From Candidatus Altimarinota bacterium (lineage in GTDB: Bacteria; Patescibacteriota; Gracilibacteria; CAIRYL01), in contig OZ252287.1 of the NCBI GenBank assembly GCA_965250085.1, forward strand, positions 128,001 through 192,000: a DNA stretch of 64,000 nucleotides, written 5' to 3'. Both the position numbers and the translations under genes were made by a program. Of the stretch, positions 12,473-47,888 are shown piece after piece. The notes beneath the pieces are model-generated. The model ran no database searches. It was not told the DNA's origin and worked only from the letters and a program-made list of their open reading frames with translations. Every line of letters begins with the position of its first letter. Position 1 is the stretch's first letter.

Positions 12473-15400
12473 ATGCGAAAATTATTTTCTGTTCTCTGTT
12501 GTTTAATATTTCTTTCCGGACAAATCACTTTCCTTCCTCAAGTATCTGCTGAGGAAGTACTCGAATCATCGACTTCAATTTTTGCGGAAACAACAGACGA
12601 TCCCAATACAAAAGGAAAACCTGCTGGAAGTTCTGAAGAGCGTGATGTGATCCTTGATCCGGCACTATTAGGATCTCTGGAAAGCAAGGGGCAGGTCACA
12701 AAAGAAAAGGGTGAATCAGTGCTGATAGCTCCTTTGGAAGACGCTTTTCAAGAGAATACCGACACCTCTTCGCTTTCATCCGAATCCTTGTCGGCAAGTT
12801 CTTCCTCTTCTTCATCAGATCCGATGGATGCTGTTTCCAATGCTCCTTTGCCCGATGTAAATACTGATCCGCTCAAAAACATTGCAGGTGTGCAGGGAGA
12901 ATATAGCGTCAGTGAATTTACGGGAGATGTGCAATATTCGTACCCCCTCTTTATGCCTCCTGGCAGGAATGGTAGCTCTCCTTCTGTTACGCTCAGTTAC
13001 TCTGCTAGTAATAAAGAGGGCAATTCTGAACTGGGAACGGGATGGAATTTAGATCTTCCCAAAATCGAACGGTATTCTCGCACAGGAGTGGAAAATCTGT
13101 ATGCCAATAATAATTTTCTTTCTCCCTTTGCCGGTGGTAATGGTGAGCTTTCCATTGACTCTATTGATGCCAATGGACACGGGACGTATATCCCCAAAAT
13201 ACAAACAGGAGCGGTCTATCATGAATTCAAAGCAGACAACACTTGGGAGATTACTGATGCCGCAGGGGTGGTGTATCGATTTGGAACGGTATCAGATGCA
13301 CGAGAACAAAGTGATGATGGCGGTAGAATGTACACCTGGTATCTGACCGAAATAGAAGACACTAATGGCAACAAGATGATATATGAATATACCAAGAGCC
13401 AGGGGTCTGTATATCTGAAGCGTATACTCTATGGAAATGAAGCCCAGCCCTATGAAGTACGATTTGAACCCTATTTTTCCGGCACTCTTGAGCAGTTTGA
13501 TGTACTTCCGTCTTATTCTCGTCTTTTCCCAGTGGTGGAGCAAAAAGACTTATTGGACTCTGTAGAGGTTTTTGATCCGTTTTCAGGAGACAAGATCGTG
13601 TATGAACTTACTTATGATACTCAAGGAACCTTTGGCTCTTCCGAAAGCCTTTCGGGCACTACTGACTATCTTATCAGCATCCAGCAAAAAGGAGTGGCGG
13701 CTTCTGGTGTGGAAACCAGTTTGCCGCCGACCGAATTTGAATACGAGAGCTATGATGGGTCCCGATCATTTGACATTGTCTATCCGGATTTGAGTGATGA
13801 AAATGGCTATGACAACACGTATTTCGATGGAACGGAGGACAGCCCCGTTCCCATGTGGATTTTTGCTGATGAAACCGGAGATGGATGGGAAGACCTGGTC
13901 AGCAATGTAGTGCGATATAAGAAAATTAATGGCAGTTATCATCATTTGCCGTATGAACGCTTATTTGTTTCACAGGGAAATGGCGAATGGGTGGAAGATC
14001 CTGATTTTATGGCTTCGGAATCATACTGGGCATGGGAGTATAGGCCCCATGATATCCGGGATTATTTTCCACCCGGATACAGAGACAATAACGGAGATGT
14101 GACCGATCATCTCTGTATTCGGAAATATCATGGAAATCTGGGTCAAAAAGATGGTTTGAGTTGCTATAACGGCGAGCATGGGAATGAGATGAAAGTGTAC
14201 CCAAGAGATGAAGACTTCCAGTTTTTGGAACTCAACGCAGATGGGCATCCGGATGGATTTAAGTATGACCATAAACAAAATTATCACAACAACACCGATA
14301 ATTCCCTGTATAGAAATACCGGAACGGCGTTTGAACCGGAAACAAGTGCTCAGTGGAATATTCCGGATGATATCTTTTATGATGAAGGCAGTACACTGTT
14401 TGGAGATATCAATGGAGACGGACTGGATGATATGGTGCACTGGTTTCAGAAAGTGGATGAATCTTCCGTTCTGGTGGAAGAAACCAAGAGAGCCTACCTC
14501 AACACCGGAGAAGGTTGGCAAGATATCACTGCAGATATTTCACTGCCTGTTCCTATTCGCCATCGCAAATGTCAGAACGGAGTCAGTACCTGTGAAGTGA
14601 TTTCTGTGAAAAAAACCTTTACCTTTCTCGATGCCAACAGAGATGGACTGGTGGATCTCTTTCATCAAGGGAAAGTGCACCTGAATAATGGATACGGCTG
14701 GGAAAGCACTGTTTCGGAGCTGTACAACAGTTCATATGACTTTGATCCCAGTTTTCCCACGCTGAGCAGCTTTACAGATCTCAACAAAGACGGTGCTTTT
14801 GAACGCAAAAAGCCGGTTGGAAAAACATTTGCCAACAATAATGAGATCGTAGATCTTCCCGTGCTCACAAATGTTACAAGCCCTCAAGGAGGATTTGCCG
14901 AATTTGAATACACTCCTGCCTCGAGTTACACCAATGCCGATGGCAGTGCGGCGAATATTGAGCTCCCTATACCTCGTCTGACGTTATCTAAGCTTACAAC
15001 CGATGACGGAATGGGAAATACAAGTGAAACCAATTATGAATATGCCGGTGGAAAGATGTATCGCAATCATGTTTCTGAGCAAGAGCTTTTGGGATTTCAT
15101 ATGGTCACCAAAGCATTGCCGGATAATTCAAAAATTATTACAGAATATGAGCAAGGGAGTGCCTCACAAAACTTTGCTGGGAAAGGGTCTCTTACAAATC
15201 AGAAAATATACACTTCTTCTGGAGATCTTTTGCAGGAAACACAGAATTTTTATGACATTGAACCCCGCGGAACCAATAGTTACGAATCCCTCCTGGAAAC
15301 AAGTATCAATCTGACATATTCAGAACACAATCCTTCAAATTATAAAGCCACAGCCTCAGAATACACCTATGACCAGTATGGAAATATCATTCAGGCCATT

Positions 15401-18400
15401 GACTATGGAGAGGTGAATGTAGTGGACACAGCAGGCAACTTCACCGATATTGGCTCCGATACTCTCACCAGCAATATTGAATATGCAGAGAATGCGGCAG
15501 ATCATATTCTCTCTCTTCCTCAGAGACAGGAACTCCTGGATAATTCCGGAACGGTTATTGGTGAAAGCAAAATCTATTATGACAATCTGCCACTGGGTCA
15601 AGTGAGCATCGGCAATCGCACCAAGACGGAAACACTCGCTTGTACTGGTCAGGCATGCCTGACCCCTACGGTGACAACTCTTACAGAGTACAACTCCTAC
15701 GGTCTGCCGACAAAGGTGACCAATCCTCGAGGGTATGACACCAATATCACGTATGATTCTCAGAATCTCTTCCCAGAGACAATTACGAATGCCAAATTAC
15801 AAATTACAAATTACGAATACGATTATCTGTTTGGAATACCCGTGGAAGTGACCGATCCAAATGGAGCGAAGTCAATTACCGTGCTGGATTCTCTCGGACG
15901 AGTCACAGAAATCAAAGTCACTGATCCGAATAATACTGATACAGAAATCATCGCGAGCACCATTAACTACGACACTACATCAGTACCGAATAGTGTCACG
16001 ACGACGACATACACCCACACTCCTCCCCTCTTTCGCAAAGAGGGGCTGGGGGAGATTTCTGTAGAGGGAGTTATGTATCTCGATGGATTTGGAAGACTTA
16101 TTCAATCGCGGACTGAAGCAGAAGGGAGTGCACAGTATACAGTGCACAGTATACAGTATGATGATCGGGGGAATATGGACAAACAAACTCTTCCTGTCTT
16201 CCAGAGTGGAATCTCATATACAGCTTCATCAGGATCTGAAGTAGGGAGTACGTATACGTATGATGCTCTGAGCAGAGTGCTGAGTGAAATAACTCCAGTG
16301 GGAACGACTTCTACTGCGTATGATCAGTGGTCACAAACGGTGACTGATGCCAATGGACATCCAAAGGACTTTACTTCTGACGCTCGAGGAAATCTGACTG
16401 AGGTGACCGAACACTTGGACGGAACTCCATATGACACGAACTATGCCTATGATCAGCTGAACAATCTCATCACAATCACAGATGCCAAGGGAAACATCAG
16501 AAACTTCACATATGACCTCCTGGGAAGACGTATCAGCATGGAAGATTTGCATACAGCAAACGATGCAACTTTCGGACTGTGGACTTTTGACTATGATGAC
16601 AACAGCAATCTCATCACTCAAACCGATCCAAAGGATCAGGAAATTTCTTACACCTATGATGAACTCGATAGAGTCCTCACCGAATCAGCAAAAATTCCTC
16701 CGTCTTCCGTCTTCGAACTGCACACTTCATACGCCTATGACACCGGAACGTATGGCATTGGACGCCTTTCATCAATAGTGAGTCCCGCTGTGACCAAGAA
16801 CTACACGTATGACATCCTCGGTAGAGTTATAAATGAACAAAAAAAGATTCTCGTACGGATTGATGGCAATCAATCCCTACAAACTTTCGACTCGTACTTC
16901 ACGTACGATCTCGCCGGCAATCAGCTCAGTATCACCTATCCTGGTTCGACAGGCTCACCACAAGCGAACATGCTCGTGGAATACACCTACAACAACGCTG
17001 GCCTTCTGGAAGCTGTACAAAAGGATGGAGCAGACATCGTCACTAATCTCGACTACATCCCTGTGGGGCTGGTCGAGAAAATTGATTACGCCAATGGCGT
17101 CAGCACCACCAATACGTATGACATTGGCCAAATCTATCGATTGACCAATAAATCCACCCTCCTTCACCAAGGTTCCGGCGGGCAGGCCGTACATCAGGAT
17201 ATCAGCTACACTTTTGATCCTGTGGGAAACATCACCCAGATCACAGACACCTCAGAGACCAACGCTGCCAAGACTTCTACATTTACCTATGATGATCTGG
17301 ACAGGCTTCTTTCTGCAACCGTGAGCAATGCGGCCAATGGCGATAATTATGCGCGCAACTATACCTATGATATCATTGGCAACATGCTGAGCCATTCAGA
17401 AGCCGGCAGTTATGAATACGCTGGAGGCGACTCTGGGACCAGCTCAGGAGCAAACTCCAATCCTCATGCCGTGACCGATGTGGCAGGAGTGGCGTATAGC
17501 TATGATGATAATGGTAATCTCATATCAAATAACACTTGGACCCATGGTTGGGATTATAAAGATCGCTTGCTGAGCTCTACAGATGGAACAGCTACGGTGA
17601 ACTATACCTATGATGAAGGGGGAGCGAGGGTGAAGAAGGTGAATGCGACCAGTGGCAAAGAGACGGTGTATGTGAATGAATTTGTGGATATCGAGGATTC
17701 TGCTGTGAAGAATCATATCTACGCCGGAGGGATGAAAGTGGCCACCTATTCTGCTGGAATTGCCAGTGGCAGTGGGAGTACGTGTACGGTAGATCTGAGT
17801 ACATGTACAGGGGAAGGAGCAAGATCGCCGTTATGGGAGAATGAGACTTCTCTCAATGGAGCTATAACTGAAGCGCATTATTTAGAAACATATGGACAGA
17901 TGTGTGTGGTGATCTTGTCTGGTGGAGAACAGGTGGCATGGCCTGTAGCTCAGGAAGCAAGCTGGTGGTGTGGTGAAGTGAGTATCCCTGTCTATGAGAG
18001 TGATATAGTCTATCACCATGAAGATCACTTAACGGGATCAAATGTAGACACCGATGACACAGGAAACCTCATTCAGCTATTAGACTACTACCCCTATGGA
18101 GATACTAGACTCGATGAACAGTCATCATCGTACGCAAATGACTATAAGTTTACAGGGAAGGAGAAGGATGAGGATACAGGACTCTATTATTATGAGGCGA
18201 GGTATTATGATAGTGGGATTGGGAGGTTTATATCACTCGATCCCTGGTTTGGAGATATTTATGACCCGCAGAGTTTGAATAAGTATGCGTATGTGAGGAA
18301 TAATCCATTGAAGTATGTGGATGAGACGGGGGAGGTCTATCAAAAAATAGTAGACTGGGCTCTAAAGTGGGCTGCAAAAAAAACACTTCGAAAGGAAATT

Positions 18401-18826
18401 GAAGAAATGATCTTTCCTGAGCAAACGGCAGGAGAACCTGATCCTCGTATTCCTGAATCATCTTATTCTCAGGTTCAAACTATATTTAACTCAAATGGAT
18501 TACAGGCAAACTCCGTTCGAAGATTTTATGATGATGTTATTATCTCAGGGATCAGTGAAAACAATCAAAATTTCACAGTAAATGTTGGTCCAGAATCTAT
18601 AAGCTTATATATATCCTTCGAAGACTCTACAATTAGCTCTGCGGTAACCATTGACCTTACGAGCTCATTCCCTACAAGTGTAATGGAGAAAATTGATGAT
18701 GAGGGATCAGTTGCTAGACTGGAATTAGTTGTTCGTAGTAAACTTGAGAATCATTATAAAAGTATTAAGCCAAAAGAAGATGGAAAAGATGAAGAAAGTG
18801 AAACTGACAATGATTCAGGGGATTAA
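12473..18826 (+). CDS. Large RHS/YD-repeat polymorphic toxin (SpvB-like N-terminus, FG-GAP repeats, RHS core, variable CT)
   Basis: Signal peptide; PPGRNG..P.VTLSY, LGTGWNLDLP; DINGDGLDD; YD repeats; FTGKEKDEDTGLYYYEARYYD; NNPLKYVDETG. Confidence 0.93.
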   Translation: MRKLFSVLCCLIFLSGQITFLPQVSAEEVLESSTSIFAETTDDPNTKGKPAGSSEERDVILDPALLGSLESKGQVTKEKGESVLIAPLEDAFQENTDTSSLSSESLSASSSSSSSDPMDAVSNAPLPDVNTDPLKNIAGVQGEYSVSEFTGDVQYSYPLFMPPGRNGSSPSVTLSYSASNKEGNSELGTGWNLDLPKIERYSRTGVENLYANNNFLSPFAGGNGELSIDSIDANGHGTYIPKIQTGAVYHEFKADNTWEITDAAGVVYRFGTVSDAREQSDDGGRMYTWYLTEIEDTNGNKMIYEYTKSQGSVYLKRILYGNEAQPYEVRFEPYFSGTLEQFDVLPSYSRLFPVVEQKDLLDSVEVFDPFSGDKIVYELTYDTQGTFGSSESLSGTTDYLISIQQKGVAASGVETSLPPTEFEYESYDGSRSFDIVYPDLSDENGYDNTYFDGTEDSPVPMWIFADETGDGWEDLVSNVVRYKKINGSYHHLPYERLFVSQGNGEWVEDPDFMASESYWAWEYRPHDIRDYFPPGYRDNNGDVTDHLCIRKYHGNLGQKDGLSCYNGEHGNEMKVYPRDEDFQFLELNADGHPDGFKYDHKQNYHNNTDNSLYRNTGTAFEPETSAQWNIPDDIFYDEGSTLFGDINGDGLDDMVHWFQKVDESSVLVEETKRAYLNTGEGWQDITADISLPVPIRHRKCQNGVSTCEVISVKKTFTFLDANRDGLVDLFHQGKVHLNNGYGWESTVSELYNSSYDFDPSFPTLSSFTDLNKDGAFERKKPVGKTFANNNEIVDLPVLTNVTSPQGGFAEFEYTPASSYTNADGSAANIELPIPRLTLSKLTTDDGMGNTSETNYEYAGGKMYRNHVSEQELLGFHMVTKALPDNSKIITEYEQGSASQNFAGKGSLTNQKIYTSSGDLLQETQNFYDIEPRGTNSYESLLETSINLTYSEHNPSNYKATASEYTYDQYGNIIQAIDYGEVNVVDTAGNFTDIGSDTLTSNIEYAENAADHILSLPQRQELLDNSGTVIGESKIYYDNLPLGQVSIGNRTKTETLACTGQACLTPTVTTLTEYNSYGLPTKVTNPRGYDTNITYDSQNLFPETITNAKLQITNYEYDYLFGIPVEVTDPNGAKSITVLDSLGRVTEIKVTDPNNTDTEIIASTINYDTTSVPNSVTTTTYTHTPPLFRKEGLGEISVEGVMYLDGFGRLIQSRTEAEGSAQYTVHSIQYDDRGNMDKQTLPVFQSGISYTASSGSEVGSTYTYDALSRVLSEITPVGTTSTAYDQWSQTVTDANGHPKDFTSDARGNLTEVTEHLDGTPYDTNYAYDQLNNLITITDAKGNIRNFTYDLLGRRISMEDLHTANDATFGLWTFDYDDNSNLITQTDPKDQEISYTYDELDRVLTESAKIPPSSVFELHTSYAYDTGTYGIGRLSSIVSPAVTKNYTYDILGRVINEQKKILVRIDGNQSLQTFDSYFTYDLAGNQLSITYPGSTGSPQANMLVEYTYNNAGLLEAVQKDGADIVTNLDYIPVGLVEKIDYANGVSTTNTYDIGQIYRLTNKSTLLHQGSGGQAVHQDISYTFDPVGNITQITDTSETNAAKTSTFTYDDLDRLLSATVSNAANGDNYARNYTYDIIGNMLSHSEAGSYEYAGGDSGTSSGANSNPHAVTDVAGVAYSYDDNGNLISNNTWTHGWDYKDRLLSSTDGTATVNYTYDEGGARVKKVNATSGKETVYVNEFVDIEDSAVKNHIYAGGMKVATYSAGIASGSGSTCTVDLSTCTGEGARSPLWENETSLNGAITEAHYLETYGQMCVVILSGGEQVAWPVAQEASWWCGEVSIPVYESDIVYHHEDHLTGSNVDTDDTGNLIQLLDYYPYGDTRLDEQSSSYANDYKFTGKEKDEDTGLYYYEARYYDSGIGRFISLDPWFGDIYDPQSLNKYAYVRNNPLKYVDETGEVYQKIVDWALKWAAKKTLRKEIEEMIFPEQTAGEPDPRIPESSYSQVQTIFNSNGLQANSVRRFYDDVIISGISENNQNFTVNVGPESISLYISFEDSTISSAVTIDLTSSFPTSVMEKIDDEGSVARLELVVRSKLENHYKSIKPKEDGKDEESETDNDSGD
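15642..15669 (-). repeat. GTAG-type REP-like palindrome in frame within the RHS gene
   Basis: Perfect 18-bp GGTCAGGCATGCCTGACC preceded by GTAG on the minus strand. Confidence 0.75.
16021..16058 (+). repeat. GC-rich hairpin mini-element in frame within the RHS gene
   Basis: CCCCTCTTT-CGC-AAAGAGGGG plus GGGGGAGATTT tail; similar element at 26946-26982. Confidence 0.7.
16942..16964 (+). repeat. TTCGACAGGCTCA-core mini-element in frame (related copies at 19978-19994 and 21791-21810)
   Basis: Shared core TTCGRCMRGCTCA at three non-homologous positions. Confidence 0.75.
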
Positions 18827-19858: not shown

Positions 19859-20929
19859 GTGCCCATGCCAAAAAACAATATATCCAAAACCTCATCAACT
19901 TTTATTGCTCATTCTCAACGTGGTAACACATTGATACACGATGTACTGGAGTATCACCATGAGGATCACCTCACAGATTCGGCAAGCTCACTGCGGGCGG
20001 ATTTTAATGTAGATACGGATGATATGGGCAATGTTCTTGTGGTACTGGACTACTATCCCTATGGGGACGTGAGGTTGGATGAACAGAGTAGTTCATATGA
20101 GAATGACTATAAGTTTACGGGGAAAGAGAAGGATGAGGATACGGGTTTGTATTATTATGAAGCGAGGTATTATGATTCTGGGATTGGGAGGTTTACTGCT
20201 ATTGACCCGATGGCAAAACTTTCTCCAGAAACTTTCCTGAAGGATCCTCAGCAATTAAATTCGTACACTTATGTCCGTAATAATCCCTTGGGTGCAATTG
20301 ATCCTGATGGGCTTCTCACTATCTTTATTCATGGAACTGTTTTGCCAGGAAAAAATACAAATCCATTTTCTGAGGGTTATATGAAACAAGTTGCTACGGA
20401 TCTTGGAGATAATAGCTATACAAATTTCTCTTGGTCAGGAACGAGTAGTGAAAAGGCAAGAACAGAGGCCGCAAGAAACCTGGAGTCTTTGGTTAGAAAC
20501 TACGAATTTTCTGAGGGGGAACAGTTAAATATCGTGGGGCATAGCCACGGTGGGAATGTTTCCATTGAAGCCATAAACACGAATAGAATGCTTCGCAATG
20601 TAGACAACCTTGTTCTTCTGGGTGCCCCAAATAGAGATGATTATACTTTAGATAATGATAATGTTGGGGCTGTGTACAATGTCTATTCATTGGAAGACAA
20701 TATACAAAATAACTGGGGCGGAGAATTTACTACTAATCCCGCAGAGTCTACCTATGCTAATCATCCGTGGAGAGCTGGCGAAAACGTGAAGAATCTTCGC
20801 TTTAGAGACATGAATAAGGGTCCAATTGAAACTCACTCATGGCTAAGAACACAGGAAGCTTGGAGTTATATTCGTAAATTTATAGAAGACAAAGATGAGG
20901 AAAGTTCGGATGACAAAGATGCAAGTTAA
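19859..20929 (+). CDS. Orphan RHS core fragment plus alpha/beta-hydrolase (lipase-like) CT
   Basis: RHS core homology from ~19945 (YHHEDHLT), NNPLGAIDPDG, then IFIHG, GHSHGG nucleophile elbow, late His (ETHS). Confidence 0.85.
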   Translation: MPMPKNNISKTSSTFIAHSQRGNTLIHDVLEYHHEDHLTDSASSLRADFNVDTDDMGNVLVVLDYYPYGDVRLDEQSSSYENDYKFTGKEKDEDTGLYYYEARYYDSGIGRFTAIDPMAKLSPETFLKDPQQLNSYTYVRNNPLGAIDPDGLLTIFIHGTVLPGKNTNPFSEGYMKQVATDLGDNSYTNFSWSGTSSEKARTEAARNLESLVRNYEFSEGEQLNIVGHSHGGNVSIEAINTNRMLRNVDNLVLLGAPNRDDYTLDNDNVGAVYNVYSLEDNIQNNWGGEFTTNPAESTYANHPWRAGENVKNLRFRDMNKGPIETHSWLRTQEAWSYIRKFIEDKDEESSDDKDAS

Positions 20930-20943
20930 TCTAATTTTTTACT

Positions 20944-21279
20944 ATGTCATTATTTTTTACACTGCCTTACTGTTTCGCGATTGTATCGCTCCATATAATT
21001 TCATTTTTTTTTGATTTATATGATACGGCCTGGGCATTTATTCCATTTTTTGTAATTTTCTTTTCCACATTATTTTTTATCTTGAGCTCATTTCTTGTTG
21101 TTAAACTGGTTTGTAATAAAAAAACAGAAAATAATTGGTACATCAAGTATTTAAAAGATCATAAACTACAATTCACCATTATTACGATTGTTCTCACAAT
21201 TCCTGTTTATTGTATCTTCAATGTAATAGCTTATTATTTGCTTTCTTTTTGGGGGGTCGATAGCAATTTTTGGTTTTGA
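20944..21279 (+). CDS. Small membrane protein, putative immunity protein of the lipase CT
   Basis: ~3 TM segments, AT-rich, 14 bp after the CT. Confidence 0.55.
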   Translation: MSLFFTLPYCFAIVSLHIISFFFDLYDTAWAFIPFFVIFFSTLFFILSSFLVVKLVCNKKTENNWYIKYLKDHKLQFTIITIVLTIPVYCIFNVIAYYLLSFWGVDSNFWF

Positions 21280-21379
21280 TTTAAGTCCTATGATATTATA
21301 AGTCCACGCGGGAGCAGGTGTTCTGAGAGAAGCGAATGACACCTGCTCCTATAAATCCCTTCTTTTAGCTCATAAAAAC

Positions 21380-21455
21380 ATGAAAGTAGTCACCTCTTCA
21401 GCCGGCATCGCTAGTGGCAGTGGCAGTACGTGCACAGTTGATTTGAGTGGATGTA
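21380..21455 (+). pseudogene. Short RHS remnant
   Basis: Matches ~17732-17806 (ATGAAAGT..GC.AGTGGCAGTGG.AGTACGTG). Confidence 0.7.
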
Positions 21456-21524
21456 GCAGTCAGGACATGTCCCCGCTAGCGCGCGTTTGTAACGCGTGCA
21501 ATAAATAAACACTTTCAAGAATCC

Positions 21525-22490
21525 ATGTCAAAAAACTATACCTCTAACCCCCATGCAGTAACAGAAATAGCTGGTGTACCCTACTCCTACGATCCCAACG
21601 GCAATCTCACCTCCAATGATACCTGGAATCACTCTTGGGATTATAAAGACCGACTGCTGAGCAGTGCAGATGGAAGTACAACGGTGAACTATGAATATGA
21701 TGAGGGAGGCAATAGAGTGAAGAAGGTGAATACCTCAAGTGGGAAAGAAACCGTGTATGTGAATGAATACGTAGATATTGAGGATTCTGACCCTTCGACC
21801 GGCTCAGGACCTGCGGCAGTGAAAAATCATATCTATGCTGGAGGAATGAAGATAGCAACGTATTCTGAGGGTATTGCCAGTGGCACAGGGAGCACCTGTA
21901 CAGTTGACCTCAGTGGATGTGCTGGAGAAGGAGACACATCTCCACTCTGGGAGAATGAAACTTCACTCTCTGGAGTTTTGCAGGAAGAAGCTCATTATCT
22001 AGAAATCTCTGGAGATATGTGTGTGGTGTCTCTGGAGGGAGGAGAACAGGTTGCATGGCCAACAGAATCTGAACCCTCTTGGTGGTGTGGAGAAGTGAGT
22101 ATTCCTGTCTTTGATAGTGATATTGTGTATCACCATGAAGATCACTTAACGGGATCAAATGTAGACACCGATGACACAGGAAACCTCATTCAGCTCTTAG
22201 ACTATTATCCCTATGGAGATGTGAGGCTGGATGAACAGTCTTCTTCTTATGAAAATGACTATAAGTTTACGGGCAAGGAAAAGGATGAGGATACGGGGCT
22301 GTACTACTATGAAGCACGGTATTATGATAGTAGTATTGGGAGGTTTGTGAGTTTGGATCCTTTGGTAAAAGTGTCTCCAGAGGTTTTCTTAGTTGATCCA
22401 CAGCAACTTAACGGTTACTCATATGTTTCAAACAATCCCTTAAATGCTATCGATCCTGATGGACTTCTTACTATTTTTATTCATGGGTGA
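21525..22490 (+). pseudogene. Second orphan RHS cassette, CT truncated after IFIHG
   Basis: High similarity to the main RHS 17455-18330; DPDGLLTIFIHG shared with orphan 1, then stop. Confidence 0.85.
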
Positions 22491-39782: not shown

Positions 39783-40352
39783 ATGAAAGAAATAAAAAAC
39801 ATGATCCATATCTCAACACGAGAAGAATGGAGGCAGTGGCTCGAAAAAAACCATAAAAAGGAAGCAAAAGTTTTTTTAGTGAGTTATAAAAAACACACGG
39901 GCAAACCATCAATTACACATCGAGAATCTCTTGAAGAGGCAATTTGTTTCGGATGGATTGATACCACTATCAAGAGGTTGGATGATGAGCGATATGGGAG
40001 ATATTTTGTCAGAAGAACAGATAGCAGTCGATGGAGTGAAAATACTTTGAAGTATGCCAAAGAGCTTATACGAGAAAAGAGAATGGCACCTGAGGGACTG
40101 AGGAGATATAAAGAAGGACTCAAAAAACCAACACATGATCACGGTATTCCCAAAAACCCATCTCCTCCTCCAGAATTAGAGAGAGCTCTCGCAGAAAATA
40201 AAAAAGCAGAAGAAAACTTTAAAAATCTGGCGCCTTCATACAAGAAGACGTATTTACGCTGGCTACTGGGTGCCAAAAGAGCAGAGACACGTGAAAAACG
40301 AATAACCAGAATCGTGACTCTGATGGAACAAAATAAGAAGCTTGAATTTTAG
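39783..40352 (+). CDS. YdeI/OmpD-associated family protein
   Basis: EWRQWLEKNH, EAICFGWID, AKRAETREKRI. Confidence 0.9.
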   Translation: MKEIKNMIHISTREEWRQWLEKNHKKEAKVFLVSYKKHTGKPSITHRESLEEAICFGWIDTTIKRLDDERYGRYFVRRTDSSRWSENTLKYAKELIREKRMAPEGLRRYKEGLKKPTHDHGIPKNPSPPPELERALAENKKAEENFKNLAPSYKKTYLRWLLGAKRAETREKRITRIVTLMEQNKKLEF

Positions 40353-40362
40353 AGAATGATAC

Positions 40363-41463
40363 TCAAAAGAGTGCTTTTGCAATTTGCTTTTTTAGTGTAT
40401 CCAGGTTCACTTTTTTCTCTGCGGAAATAAAGACTGGATTGCGATCTTTGTATTTTTTGGCGAGTTTGATCTTGCCAAATCTTTTACCGGCAACATCAGT
40501 TTTATTAAACACCAATATTTGCTTTTTATTACCAATTCCCAGATTTCCCAAAATATAGTCCACCACTGCAATTTTCTTTTTCCTTTCTGGATCCGAAACA
40601 TCTATTACATGAAGCAAGAGATCAGAATGGATGGTTTCTGAAAGGGTAGAGGTAAAAGCGGCAATAAGGCGTGGCGGGAGATCGGCAATAAAGCCAATAG
40701 TATCAGAAACCAACACATTTTTTTGTGCGTCAGGGAGATAGAGTTTTCCGACTTTTGTATCCAAGGTGACAAAGAGAGCATTATGAACTTTTACATTTGC
40801 TTTTTTCGTCAAAATTTTCATAAGACTTGATTTCCCAGCGTTCGTATATCCTACCAGAGACACAGTCTTAAAATTTTGCCGTTGCCGCCTTGTTCGTTGG
40901 AGATCTTTTGTTTTTTCCACTTTTTTTAATTTTTCGACAATTTTTCTCTCTTGGCGCCTGAGATGCCTTTTCATGATTTCAATATTCGTTTCTCCAATTC
41001 CACTCGTACCGATACCTCCTCCTTGCCTCGAAAGCTCCATGCCCATTCCAAATATGCGAGGACCCATATGTCGAATTTTTGCGAGATCAATCTGGAGCTT
41101 TGCTTCTGCACTTCCCGCGTGGTCAGAAAAGATTTGCAGAATAAGGTCCATGCGATCCCAGACAACAACCCCTTGCTCTTCAAAAATTTCAGTAAGTCGG
41201 AATATTTGCTGAGGTTTCAGAATATTATTCAAAATAATGAGATCTATTTTTTGTTTTTCTGCTGATTGAATCAACCCGTCAATTGTACTTGTACCAAGAT
41301 ACGTACCATAGTTGATTCGTGGAGGAAGTTGAAGTATTTGAGATCTGTGGATGCCTCCCAATGTGCGAATTAAGTGCATGAATTCTTCAAGGCGGATCTT
41401 TTTGAGAGAAGAAGTCACTTCATCTGGAAGTACATCTATGAGTATGGCATTTTTTTTGCGCAT
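40363..41463 (-). CDS. hflX: Ribosome-splitting GTPase HflX
   Basis: LSRQGGGIG..GET, GYTNAGKS, DTIGFI, NKTD, SA. Confidence 0.95.
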   Translation of the reverse strand: MRKKNAILIDVLPDEVTSSLKKIRLEEFMHLIRTLGGIHRSQILQLPPRINYGTYLGTSTIDGLIQSAEKQKIDLIILNNILKPQQIFRLTEIFEEQGVVVWDRMDLILQIFSDHAGSAEAKLQIDLAKIRHMGPRIFGMGMELSRQGGGIGTSGIGETNIEIMKRHLRRQERKIVEKLKKVEKTKDLQRTRRQRQNFKTVSLVGYTNAGKSSLMKILTKKANVKVHNALFVTLDTKVGKLYLPDAQKNVLVSDTIGFIADLPPRLIAAFTSTLSETIHSDLLLHVIDVSDPERKKKIAVVDYILGNLGIGNKKQILVFNKTDVAGKRFGKIKLAKKYKDRNPVFISAEKKVNLDTLKKQIAKALF

Positions 41464-46205: not shown

Positions 46206-47888
46206 ATGAACAAAACCTGCGTCCACTGCTCGGCCGAGTTTAAAATCACAGATAAAGATTTAAAGTTTTATGACAGCGTTTCACCTATTTTTTCTGGGAA
46301 AAAATATCAAATTCCTGAGCCAACACATTGTCCCAAATGTAGGCAGCTGAGAAGAATGGCATTTCGAAATGAAAGAAATTTGTACAGAAGAAAACAGTCC
46401 CGAGAGGACAAAGAAATGATTTCTATTTATTCTCCCGACAAAAAGTATAATATTTTGCATCCAAATGCTTGGTGGAGCGATCAGTGGAATGCACTTGATT
46501 ATGGTCAAGAATTTGATTTTTCATGTGGTTTTTTTGAACAATTTTCAAATCTTTTAAGAAAAACTCCTCTTTTGGGATTATGCGCGCTCGGATGTGAAAA
46601 TGCAGAGTATGTAAATTATTGTGGATATTCAAGAAATGCTTATCTTTCCTATAATTCTGATTATTCAGAAAATCTTCTCTATAGTTCTGATTGCATCCAA
46701 TGCAAAGATGTTATTGATTGCCTCAAATGCTCTCATTCAGAACTCTGCTATGAATGCGTAGACGTACATAATTCTTATAACACTTCATATTCTCAGTTAT
46801 GTGAGAATTGTTCAAATTCTAAATTTTTATTTGACTGCCATAGTTGCCATGACTGTTTTGGATCAGCGGGCTTGAGAAATAAAAAACATATTTTCCTGAA
46901 TACGCAATACTCGAAAGAAGAATATAATCATAAAATTCAAGAACTGGAACAATTTTCGCGAGAAAAAATAAAAAAAGATGTACAAAAATCGTGGAATGAA
47001 ATTCCAAGAATTTGTGCTCAAATACGAAATTCTAAAAACGTAAGTGGAGATTATGTCTCTCATTCAAAAGGAATTGAACGTAGTTTTGACATACAGCAGT
47101 GTGAAGATATTAAATATTGCGGAACACTTAACACAGCAAAAAATTGCTATGATTGGGATTATACTGGATACAACTCTGAACTCTGCTATGAGCTCTCCAG
47201 TTGCGGAGATAGAATCTACAACTCTTCATTTTCGTGCAATATATGGTCAGGTGGGAAAGATACTTTTTATTGTTTTCTGGGTTCAGCAATGAAAAACTGC
47301 TTTGGCTGCGTTGGACTGAGACACAAGAAATACTGCATCTTGAACAAACAGTACAGCAAGGAAGAATATGAAGAACTGGTTCCAAAGATCATAGAACATA
47401 TGAGAGAAACAGGAGAATGGGGAGAGTTTTTTCCAGTAGAGCTGTCACCCTTTGCCTATAACGAAACCGTAGCGCAAGAATACTATCCACTCACCAAAGA
47501 AGAAGTCCTTAAGAAAGGATGGAAATGGAAAGAAGAAGAGGAACCAGATTTTTCTGATGTGAGTAAAAAGATCCCAGCTGCCCAACTTCCAGAGAAGATA
47601 AAAGACATTCCTGACGATATTCTTTCTTGGGCACTAGAGTGTCAGGAAACCAAGAAGCTGTACAAGATCCAGAAAGCAGAGCTTGAATTCTATCGCAAGC
47701 AACATCTTCCGATTCCTCATTTACATCCAGACGTAAGACACCAGAAGCGGATGTCACTGAGGAATCCCAGAAAGCTCTACTCAAGGACTTGTGACAAGTG
47801 CAGCAAATCAATACAAACCACTTATTCACCAGAGAGACCGGAGACGGTATACTGCGAAGAGTGTTATTTGAAAGAGATTTATGAATAA
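46206..47888 (+). CDS. Cys-rich repeat protein with terminal zinc ribbons (C-terminal CxxC-x17-CxxC)
   Basis: CVHC..CPKC, FRNERNLYRR, CFGCVGLR, WGEFFP..SPFAYNET, CDKC..CEEC. Confidence 0.8.
   Translation: MNKTCVHCSAEFKITDKDLKFYDSVSPIFSGKKYQIPEPTHCPKCRQLRRMAFRNERNLYRRKQSREDKEMISIYSPDKKYNILHPNAWWSDQWNALDYGQEFDFSCGFFEQFSNLLRKTPLLGLCALGCENAEYVNYCGYSRNAYLSYNSDYSENLLYSSDCIQCKDVIDCLKCSHSELCYECVDVHNSYNTSYSQLCENCSNSKFLFDCHSCHDCFGSAGLRNKKHIFLNTQYSKEEYNHKIQELEQFSREKIKKDVQKSWNEIPRICAQIRNSKNVSGDYVSHSKGIERSFDIQQCEDIKYCGTLNTAKNCYDWDYTGYNSELCYELSSCGDRIYNSSFSCNIWSGGKDTFYCFLGSAMKNCFGCVGLRHKKYCILNKQYSKEEYEELVPKIIEHMRETGEWGEFFPVELSPFAYNETVAQEYYPLTKEEVLKKGWKWKEEEEPDFSDVSKKIPAAQLPEKIKDIPDDILSWALECQETKKLYKIQKAELEFYRKQHLPIPHLHPDVRHQKRMSLRNPRKLYSRTCDKCSKSIQTTYSPERPETVYCEECYLKEIYE

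Follow-up and report, generated by a model that had tools for sequence, protein, structure and literature searches.

Does a short extra segment in one copy of a duplicated gene record the arrival of a piece of DNA or its loss from the other copies, and if it arrived, what kind of DNA was it? The question is raised by an RHS/YD-repeat locus of a Candidatus Altimarinota bacterium (genome G000, one contig of 1,368,807 bp), which lies in the 64,000-nt stretch of contig OZ252287.1 from position 128,001 to 192,000 (G000:C1:128001-192000); this whole stretch is called the window, and coordinates without a prefix refer to it. On its plus strand, a full-length RHS gene of 2117 aa, A_main (12473-18826), is followed by two partial C-terminal cassettes, orphan 1 (19859-20929) and orphan 2 (21525-22490), and each of the three genes contains a short segment at which related copies are shorter. 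In our view, each of these segments probably arose by a separate, derived insertion of a single unit of a tiny GC-rich dispersed repeat, which a trans-acting route would have copied into place, with the survivors in genes filtered by selection.

The pattern TTCGRCMRGCTCA matches the window three times, at 16945, 19978 and 21794, always on the plus strand, and 100 dinucleotide shuffles give an expectation of 0.00. Insert 2, in orphan 2, is a clean 27-nt insertion (21789-21815, core 21794-21806) that encodes DPSTGSGPA and has a GC content of 70%; in translation, orphan 2 reads DIEDS-DPSTGSGPA-AVKN and A_main reads DIEDSAVKN. Nucleotide alignment of the RHS copies leaves an ambiguity of 1 nt in its placement (21789-21815 or 21790-21816) and reveals no target duplication longer than 1 nt. 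Insert 1, in orphan 1, spans 19976-20005 (core 19978-19990), where 30 nt encoding DSASSLRADF stand in place of 6 nt (GS) in the paralogs, a net gain of 24 nt; the protein reads HLT-DSASSLRADF-NVD instead of HLTGSNVD, and the first 24 nt have a GC content of 67%. Insert 3 is a 24-nt repeat unit in A_main (16943-16966, core 16945-16957) that encodes GSTGSPQA. At this site, between TATCCT and GTGGAA, A_main has 33 nt and B_main, the full-length gene of a second RHS locus in the same genome, has 15 nt (net +18), and the proteins read YP-GSTGSPQAN-MLVEY and YP-DGK-TAVEY, respectively. A preliminary description of this DNA had reported the 27-nt and 24-nt excesses and a third, non-homologous occurrence of the core at 16945, and the alignments bear out all three, the third site also being an indel. 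The GC contents of the inserts (57-70%) stand against 42% for the RHS region and 40% for the genome. Moreover, the three copies span no more than 4.9 kb, where about 0.05 would be expected from 14 copies per 1.37 Mb.

The direction of change was read from RHS genes used as outgroups, which were present in 10 of the 41 genomes searched, G000 counted. At site 1, the short form occurs in six of the seven paralogous copies of G000 and in all informative RHS genes of genomes G015, G032, G034 and G007. At site 2, it occurs in both full-length G000 genes and in the informative rows of G015 (two genes), G032, G007 and G029. At site 3, A_main is 5-7 residues longer than each of eight rows from paralogs or outgroups, among them B_main and genes of G015 (two), G032, G034, G021 and G029. 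The G026 row, and one G034 row at site 2, are too divergent or gapped to inform. Because the paralogs and the outgroup RHS genes are short at all three sites, the short state is ancestral and the long state is derived. Judged from the sequences, the three inserts are independent insertions at non-homologous sites. The preliminary description had called them frame-preserving insertion events and had named, as the finding that would overturn this reading, outgroups with the longer state; all informative rows are short, and the insertion reading stands. An ancestral long state with deletions elsewhere, or an error of assembly, would have nothing in its favor beyond the bare difference between paralogs. 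The outgroups from six genomes and the second locus are short, and Logan contigs from four runs (one sample of one study, possibly the source of the assembly) span all three inserts with 0 differences and no indels; these observations refute this alternative, which is scarcely credible. Among the sequencing runs, no RNA data set was listed. As a separate observation, an RHS cassette in G007 (G007:C140, locus L023, near 1368-1763) reads VIPAEAGIQTIFHHVDHL right before the conserved DHL motif, and this may be a further GC-rich mini-insert, from another family, that landed almost where insert 1 did.

All three RHS inserts contain a whole unit of about 24 nt, which consists of three variable bases, a 13-nt core TTCGACAAGCTCA, three bases that are often complementary to the leading ones, and a CARGC tail. 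Nine exact matches to the TTCGRCMRGCTCA pattern were found in G000, and five further copies have one or two changes and the same flanks, giving a total of about 14; the reversed control of a close variant, TTCGRCARGCTCA, has 0 matches in this genome. Among 68 distinct copies from G000 and its relatives, flank positions -1/+1, -2/+2 and -3/+3 can form a Watson-Crick pair in 60-63% of cases, compared with 40-42% (standard deviation 0.04-0.05) when the partners are shuffled between copies, a difference of about four standard deviations. The stem variants include CCC..GGG, CAC..GTG, CAT..ATG, CAG..CTG and TGG..CCA, and the flanks are common to the copies of one genome and different between genomes. 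From this covariation, the unit looks like a small hairpin with a conserved loop.

The family extends well beyond this genome. In 41 related genomes, a 13-mer with two degenerate positions gives 67 matches, compared with 7 for the reversed control, and 17 of the 41 are positive, with 0-10 copies in each genome. Of 301 genomes sampled across the phylum, 54 contain an exact 16-mer, for which the control has 0 matches and the highest number in one genome is 20; the phylum genomes sampled around G000 are about 0.4-2.1 Mb in size. Species-representative genomes contain an exact 21-mer in at least 120 stretches, and about 0.3 chance matches are estimated for that collection. According to the record titles, the matches listed include Acidobacteriota, Chloroflexota, several groups of the candidate phyla radiation, Alpha-, Beta-, Gamma- and Deltaproteobacteria, Verrucomicrobiota, Planctomycetota, Bacteroidota, Actinomycetota, Chlamydiota, Gemmatimonadota and Cyanobacteria, and isolates among them include Sphingomonas natans, Chakrabartia godavariana and a Nostoc. 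In addition, 27 viral contigs carry the exact 21-mer. Core counts in five other genomes are 146, 124, 26, 797 and 376, compared with 0-4 for the control, with 26 in one Nostoc genome and 124-797 in G041, G042, G044 and G045. The contexts differ by lineage: single units; inverted pairs in sphingomonads, which would fold into long hairpins; in Acidobacteria, units at the loops of longer hairpins; tandem arrays that repeat every 24 nt (loci L173, L213 and L302); and arrays of a 108-nt composite unit in an actinomycete metagenome-assembled genome (MAG; G044). In the latter, G044:C1:269900-271450 and 40100-41250 hold about 12 tandem 108-nt copies that are 95% alike, with the core once per strand. 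The family is patchy and low-copy in the small-genome phylum of G000, and in other phyla it can number in the hundreds of copies. That the RHS inserts belong to repeats ranging over many phyla goes beyond anything that the preliminary description had proposed.

This family seems to be undescribed, as far as the literature can be searched. The core DNA strings on both strands and their peptide readings returned no description from the searchable literature, with supplements and subscription journals outside the scope; two papers that contain a core string are unrelated, one involving a Tet-On construct and the other DNA mechanics. In the window, Rfam 15 finds only a tRNA and no family at the repeat. 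At 18 acidobacterial loci, its Acido-Lenti-1 matches fall away from the motif, and at six more loci searched at E<=1 only sub-threshold hairpin-like matches appear. In the acidobacterial loci L161, L194 and L221, Acido-Lenti-1 (RF01687) lies from a few hundred bases to 6 kb from the motif, with no overlap.

Might the motif have a function under selection, for instance in DNA uptake, in the binding of a protein or, as a hairpin, in RNA processing, so that copies build up for their usefulness and those inside genes are incidental? The conserved core and the covarying stem would suit such a site. So would the non-coding copies of G000, which lie in the spacer between tRNA-Glu and tRNA-Arg, 12 nt beyond tRNA-Leu(CAA), and a short way upstream of an mltG-like gene, as well as a copy in G023 directly after a tRNA-like 3′ end. 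However, the gene-internal copies came by insertion and not by substitution, no Rfam family matches, and the family has a patchy occurrence (in 54 of the 301 phylum genomes and in 17 of the 41 relatives), so that no essential conserved function is indicated. DNA uptake sequences (DUS, or USS, uptake signal sequences) of Neisseria and Pasteurellaceae are gained by substitution with no change in length, are lineage-specific, and occur in thousands of copies. As commonly described, they share with the present repeat a short conserved motif that lies in genes and spacers, sometimes as inverted pairs, but the copies described here are insertions and are few in G000. We consider the functional-site explanation quite improbable. 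Possible likenesses of the core to tRNA T-loop and D-arm boxes, to the 5′ end of tmRNA and to HUH nick-site hairpins were weighed, as was a rolling-circle origin for the 24-nt arrays, and we make no claim for any of them. The trailers of tRNA-Glu and tRNA-Leu(CAA) (G000:C1:1002159-1002265 and 1046744-1046756) are themselves alike, each consisting of CCA, ttcgactc, two or three variable bases, and then a degenerate copy of the core.

Six of the 14 G000 copies lie inside long open reading frames (ORFs): the three RHS genes, PriA, a Cys-rich paralog, and a sortase-like ORF, in which the copy is in the N-terminal part and the true start may be downstream of it. The Cys-rich family has no Pfam match and comprises 10 paralogs in G000, with up to 25 matches in relatives. 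One paralog, outside the window (G000:C1:1325724-1327433; a family member within the window occupies 46212-47882), has 48 additional nt where eight of the 10 paralogs have nothing. This block is a nested pair: the outer unit, of the CCA..GGG subfamily, is broken within its core by a 24-nt inner one that belongs to the CAG..CTG subfamily. Similar pairs, with inner and outer members unlike in their flanks or in the variant of the core, were seen in G023 (L121) and in a viral contig (L287), and the inner units are 23-25 nt long. In PriA (G000:C1:390298-392583), an antisense copy lies inside a stretch that is 8 residues longer than in 13 orthologs, in a region that aligns poorly. Other blocks were seen in the same two families. 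A ninth Cys-rich paralog has a different GC-rich in-frame block at exactly the same site, reading ISPTPSLQKRGTSPLEKGGLRG. Compared with the 13 orthologs, PriA has two more lineage-specific blocks, PPQSPLIKGG and one of 16-19 residues reading NQSSGVGSRKKNQNSKFK, and the PriA ortholog of G004 has its own block, FHSGRDKAMPCL.

The preliminary description had noted that the three RHS copies agree in orientation and reading phase. This holds for these copies, in which the core is on the sense strand and in one phase (xTT-CGR... = S-(T/A)-x-S), and for all five sense-strand ORF-internal copies of G000, which read S-T/A-x-S. As a rule for the family it fails, given the antisense copy in PriA and the other phases in relatives. 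The same phase recurs in L099 and L132, and in shorter ORFs in L136 and L116, but L115, L125, L129, L135 and L137 are in the LRQAQ phase, and L104 and L124 read antisense as PELVEG or the like. Matches in L098, L127, L140 and L149, among others, were set aside as chance 13-mer matches in ordinary coding sequence, on account of their AT-rich, unpaired flanks. The common phase is thus a local pattern and not a property of the element.

The positions of the inserts in the protein were examined in a structure model of A_main residues 1440-1960, built from an 11-row alignment, with a mean predicted local distance difference test score (pLDDT) of 57.7. Residue blocks 1-120 of the model score 73-88, except for the block with insert 3, which forms a loop between strands 45-50 and 61-67 with a pLDDT below 50 at 54-57. 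At the empty site of insert 2, strands 299-302 and 305-312 are joined by a turn of two residues, and the empty site of insert 1 falls between strands 406-411 and 418-421, in a low-confidence stretch. In this model, the inserts would be placed between beta-strands, which fits the survival of insertions at turns.

How might such a unit come to be in these places? We suggest that it spreads by copy-insertion via a trans-acting route, probably with an RNA or DNA intermediate that would be single-stranded and would recognize the core. In genes, the survivors would be the harmless insertions, those with a length divisible by three and no stop codon, whose peptides are small and hydrophilic (rich in S, T, G, P and A in the G000 phase) and sit at a turn between beta-strands. 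The inserts would look frame-preserving because of this selection filter and not because the mechanism senses the frame.

Several points weigh against this proposal. No mobilizing enzyme, target-site duplication or fixed element ends were found, and no target consensus emerged from four empty sites. The stem has only 3 bp, and the hairpin is therefore weak. In G045 and in a Colwellia MAG, some arrays that look nested might instead be partial tandem duplications, with periods of 15 or 17 nt. Contigs from the one sample, a kind of data that drops rare variants, contain no empty allele and so give no sign of recent mobility. The ORFs in relatives were judged by length only, and the structure model is of modest quality, with a confidence below 50 at site 1. 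Finally, the net gains are unequal (27, 24 and 18 nt), and a few ancestral bases at sites 1 and 3 look replaced and not merely split; templated repair therefore fits these sites as well as transposition does.

Such repair is the basis of the main rival explanation, according to which no dedicated mobility exists: existing copies would serve as templates at breaks or stalled forks, through template switching or microhomology-mediated repair, and the growth of the family would be a by-product of the replication and repair of hairpin-forming DNA. Read by eye, the ends of the unit overlap the empty site at each junction: site 1 has ACAG, site 2 CTG(C), site 3 CCTG and the Cys-rich paralog CAGG, overlaps of 3-4 nt that may be due to chance. 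Besides the replaced bases, this explanation can draw on the variable lengths, the lack of a target duplication, the half-unit partial tandem duplications in G045 and the Colwellia MAG, and the fact that no transposase tracks the family. It leaves unexplained, however, an identical 21-nt sequence across many phyla and viral contigs, as well as a constant core with a covarying stem, and we judge it unlikely.

A second possibility would be an element of the REP/REPIN type (repetitive extragenic palindromic sequences and their inverted pairs) moved by a RAYT (REP-associated tyrosine transposase), which is a Y1 HUH transposase. The present repeat is likewise short, GC-rich, partly palindromic and dispersed; its inverted pairs in sphingomonads would form long hairpins; and G000 has two weak Y1_Tnp-like ORFs, one of them within the second RHS locus. 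However, REPs are extragenic, species-specific and RAYT-linked, whereas six of the 14 copies in G000 lie in ORFs and the core crosses phyla. Furthermore, PF01797 has 0 matches in all four high-copy genomes, G041, G042, G044 and G045 (124-797 copies; completeness not given), the relatives G037 (7 copies) and G009 (8 copies) have no Y1 match, and G040, G035, G018 and G031 have 6-29 Y1 matches and 0 copies. Because PF01797 is absent from the four high-copy genomes and the presence of Y1 does not follow copy number in relatives, a Y1 or RAYT enzyme is unlikely to be the agent, and we regard the REP/REPIN explanation as a whole as very improbable.

Compared by description and not by sequence, the kind of element that our repeat most resembles appears to be the small dispersed repeats (SDR1-8) of Nostoc punctiforme and its relatives. 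SDRs, the subject of work by Elhai et al. in 2008, are said to be 21-27 nt long, with a hairpin backed by compensatory changes, to nest within themselves, to occur in heptamer arrays, and to be thought to move through RNA. The likeness includes the size class of 21-27 nt and the dispersed, multi-copy habit (here, inserts of 24-27 nt and about 14 copies in G000), a small hairpin with compensatory changes (here, a covarying 3-bp stem), and copies nested in copies (here, the Cys-rich paralog, L121 and L287, the cases in G045 and Colwellia being ambiguous). It also extends to precise insertion into short sites, reportedly a feature of SDRs, and to occasional embedding in tandem heptamers. The latter is a minority feature in our family: tandem heptamers stand beside 3 of 88 copies by a strict definition and, by a looser one, beside 4 of 88 and 2 of 68, which are small numbers, compared with 0.5-0.9% of random positions. 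In published accounts, SDR5 is described as inserting between nucleotides 3 and 4 of HIP1 (PMC4390886) and as a 21-nt element with a function unknown as of 2026 (PMC13756078), and SDRs are reported to be confined to heterocystous cyanobacteria (PMC5861425). By contrast, the present family spans many phyla and viral contigs and lies in frame inside protein-coding genes. This last property recalls the Rickettsia palindromic elements, which, according to a review (PMC10969869), are palindromic and lie in frame in unrelated genes, adding a peptide segment that the fold tolerates. Those elements are about 150 bp long and are not known outside Rickettsia, whereas our unit is 24-27 nt long and crosses phyla. 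Nor does the repeat have the marks of a miniature inverted-repeat transposable element, namely, terminal inverted repeats, a target-site duplication and a length of roughly 50-500 bp; the unit is 24-27 nt long, and the clean insert has no duplication longer than 1 nt.

A wider picture may be offered tentatively, as one that we ourselves find rather doubtful. The unit might be a pan-bacterial mobile element of about 24 nt without coding capacity, among the smallest known, in which the invariant 13-nt loop would serve both as the recognition signal and as the preferred target. It would be moved by widely shared machinery, perhaps an RNA-templated route or an enzyme with a housekeeping role, and phages would take it from phylum to phylum; its in-frame landing at beta-turns would add loops to proteins, including essential ones such as PriA. 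If the copy-insertion reading is true, tiny SDR-like repeats would be more than a cyanobacterial curiosity: they would form a class found across phyla, one that shapes spacers and proteins alike. It would also bear on how oligonucleotide-sized non-coding DNA can spread, on the origin of GC-rich peptides (STSSGQA, FDKLRAG, LRQAQ, PELVEG and similar) in metagenomic hypothetical proteins, and on gene calling and alignment in small-genome bacteria. Because each insert is a clean derived marker, the inserts bear on the dating of paralog and cassette histories. The 13-nt core, the culturable high-copy hosts, and the pairs of empty and filled sites provide a handle for finding the responsible factor.

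The host locus itself has the organization of an RHS/YD polymorphic toxin locus, in which RHS/YD repeats and an Rhs-associated core precede a variable C-terminal tip, and of orphan cassettes, in which partial copies downstream have the core region in common and differ in their tips. A_main has an SpvB-like N-terminal region (SpvB, 2.3e-15), RHS repeats (RHS_repeat, PF05593, 1.2e-28) and an Rhs-associated core (TIGR03696 at residues 1872-1953); TIGR01643 and TIGR03696 are present in A_main and in both orphans. The homology of orphan 1 to A_main begins at EYHHEDHL, its Rhs-associated core (TIGR03696) covers residues 65-152, and its tip is alpha/beta-hydrolase-like (Abhydrolase_8, 1e-4). Orphan 2 is the longer cassette in its share of the RHS C-terminal region, and its protein is 80% identical to the corresponding part of A_main. 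The second RHS locus, on the minus strand at 929800-937170 of G000, includes B_main and three orphans. One orphan cassette of this locus (G000:C1:924381-924995, minus strand) has an internal TAA. Between its full-length gene and the first orphan lies a 196-aa ORF (G000:C1:928328-928921, L298:1229-1822, minus strand) with a weak Y1_Tnp (IS200-like) match (E 2e-6), and Y1-like ORFs also adjoin RHS loci in G015 and G029. In G040, which belongs to the class of G000, each IS200-like gene has 5-10 TGA codons in frame, a sign that TGA may be a sense codon there; together with the small genomes of the phylum, this may point to the candidate phyla radiation. G000 also contains a second family of small hairpins, in which CCCCCTTGAAAAGGGGG precedes a G-run. 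It has 16 copies (e.g., at genome positions 294160, 753873 and 921681), six of them in ORFs of 150 aa or more, and its 12-mers rank with the commonest GC-rich words of the genome. At about 16022-16057 of the window, A_main and its paralog read PPLFRKEGLGEI and PSLFRKEGLGEI, which looks like a unit of this second family that is common to both loci.

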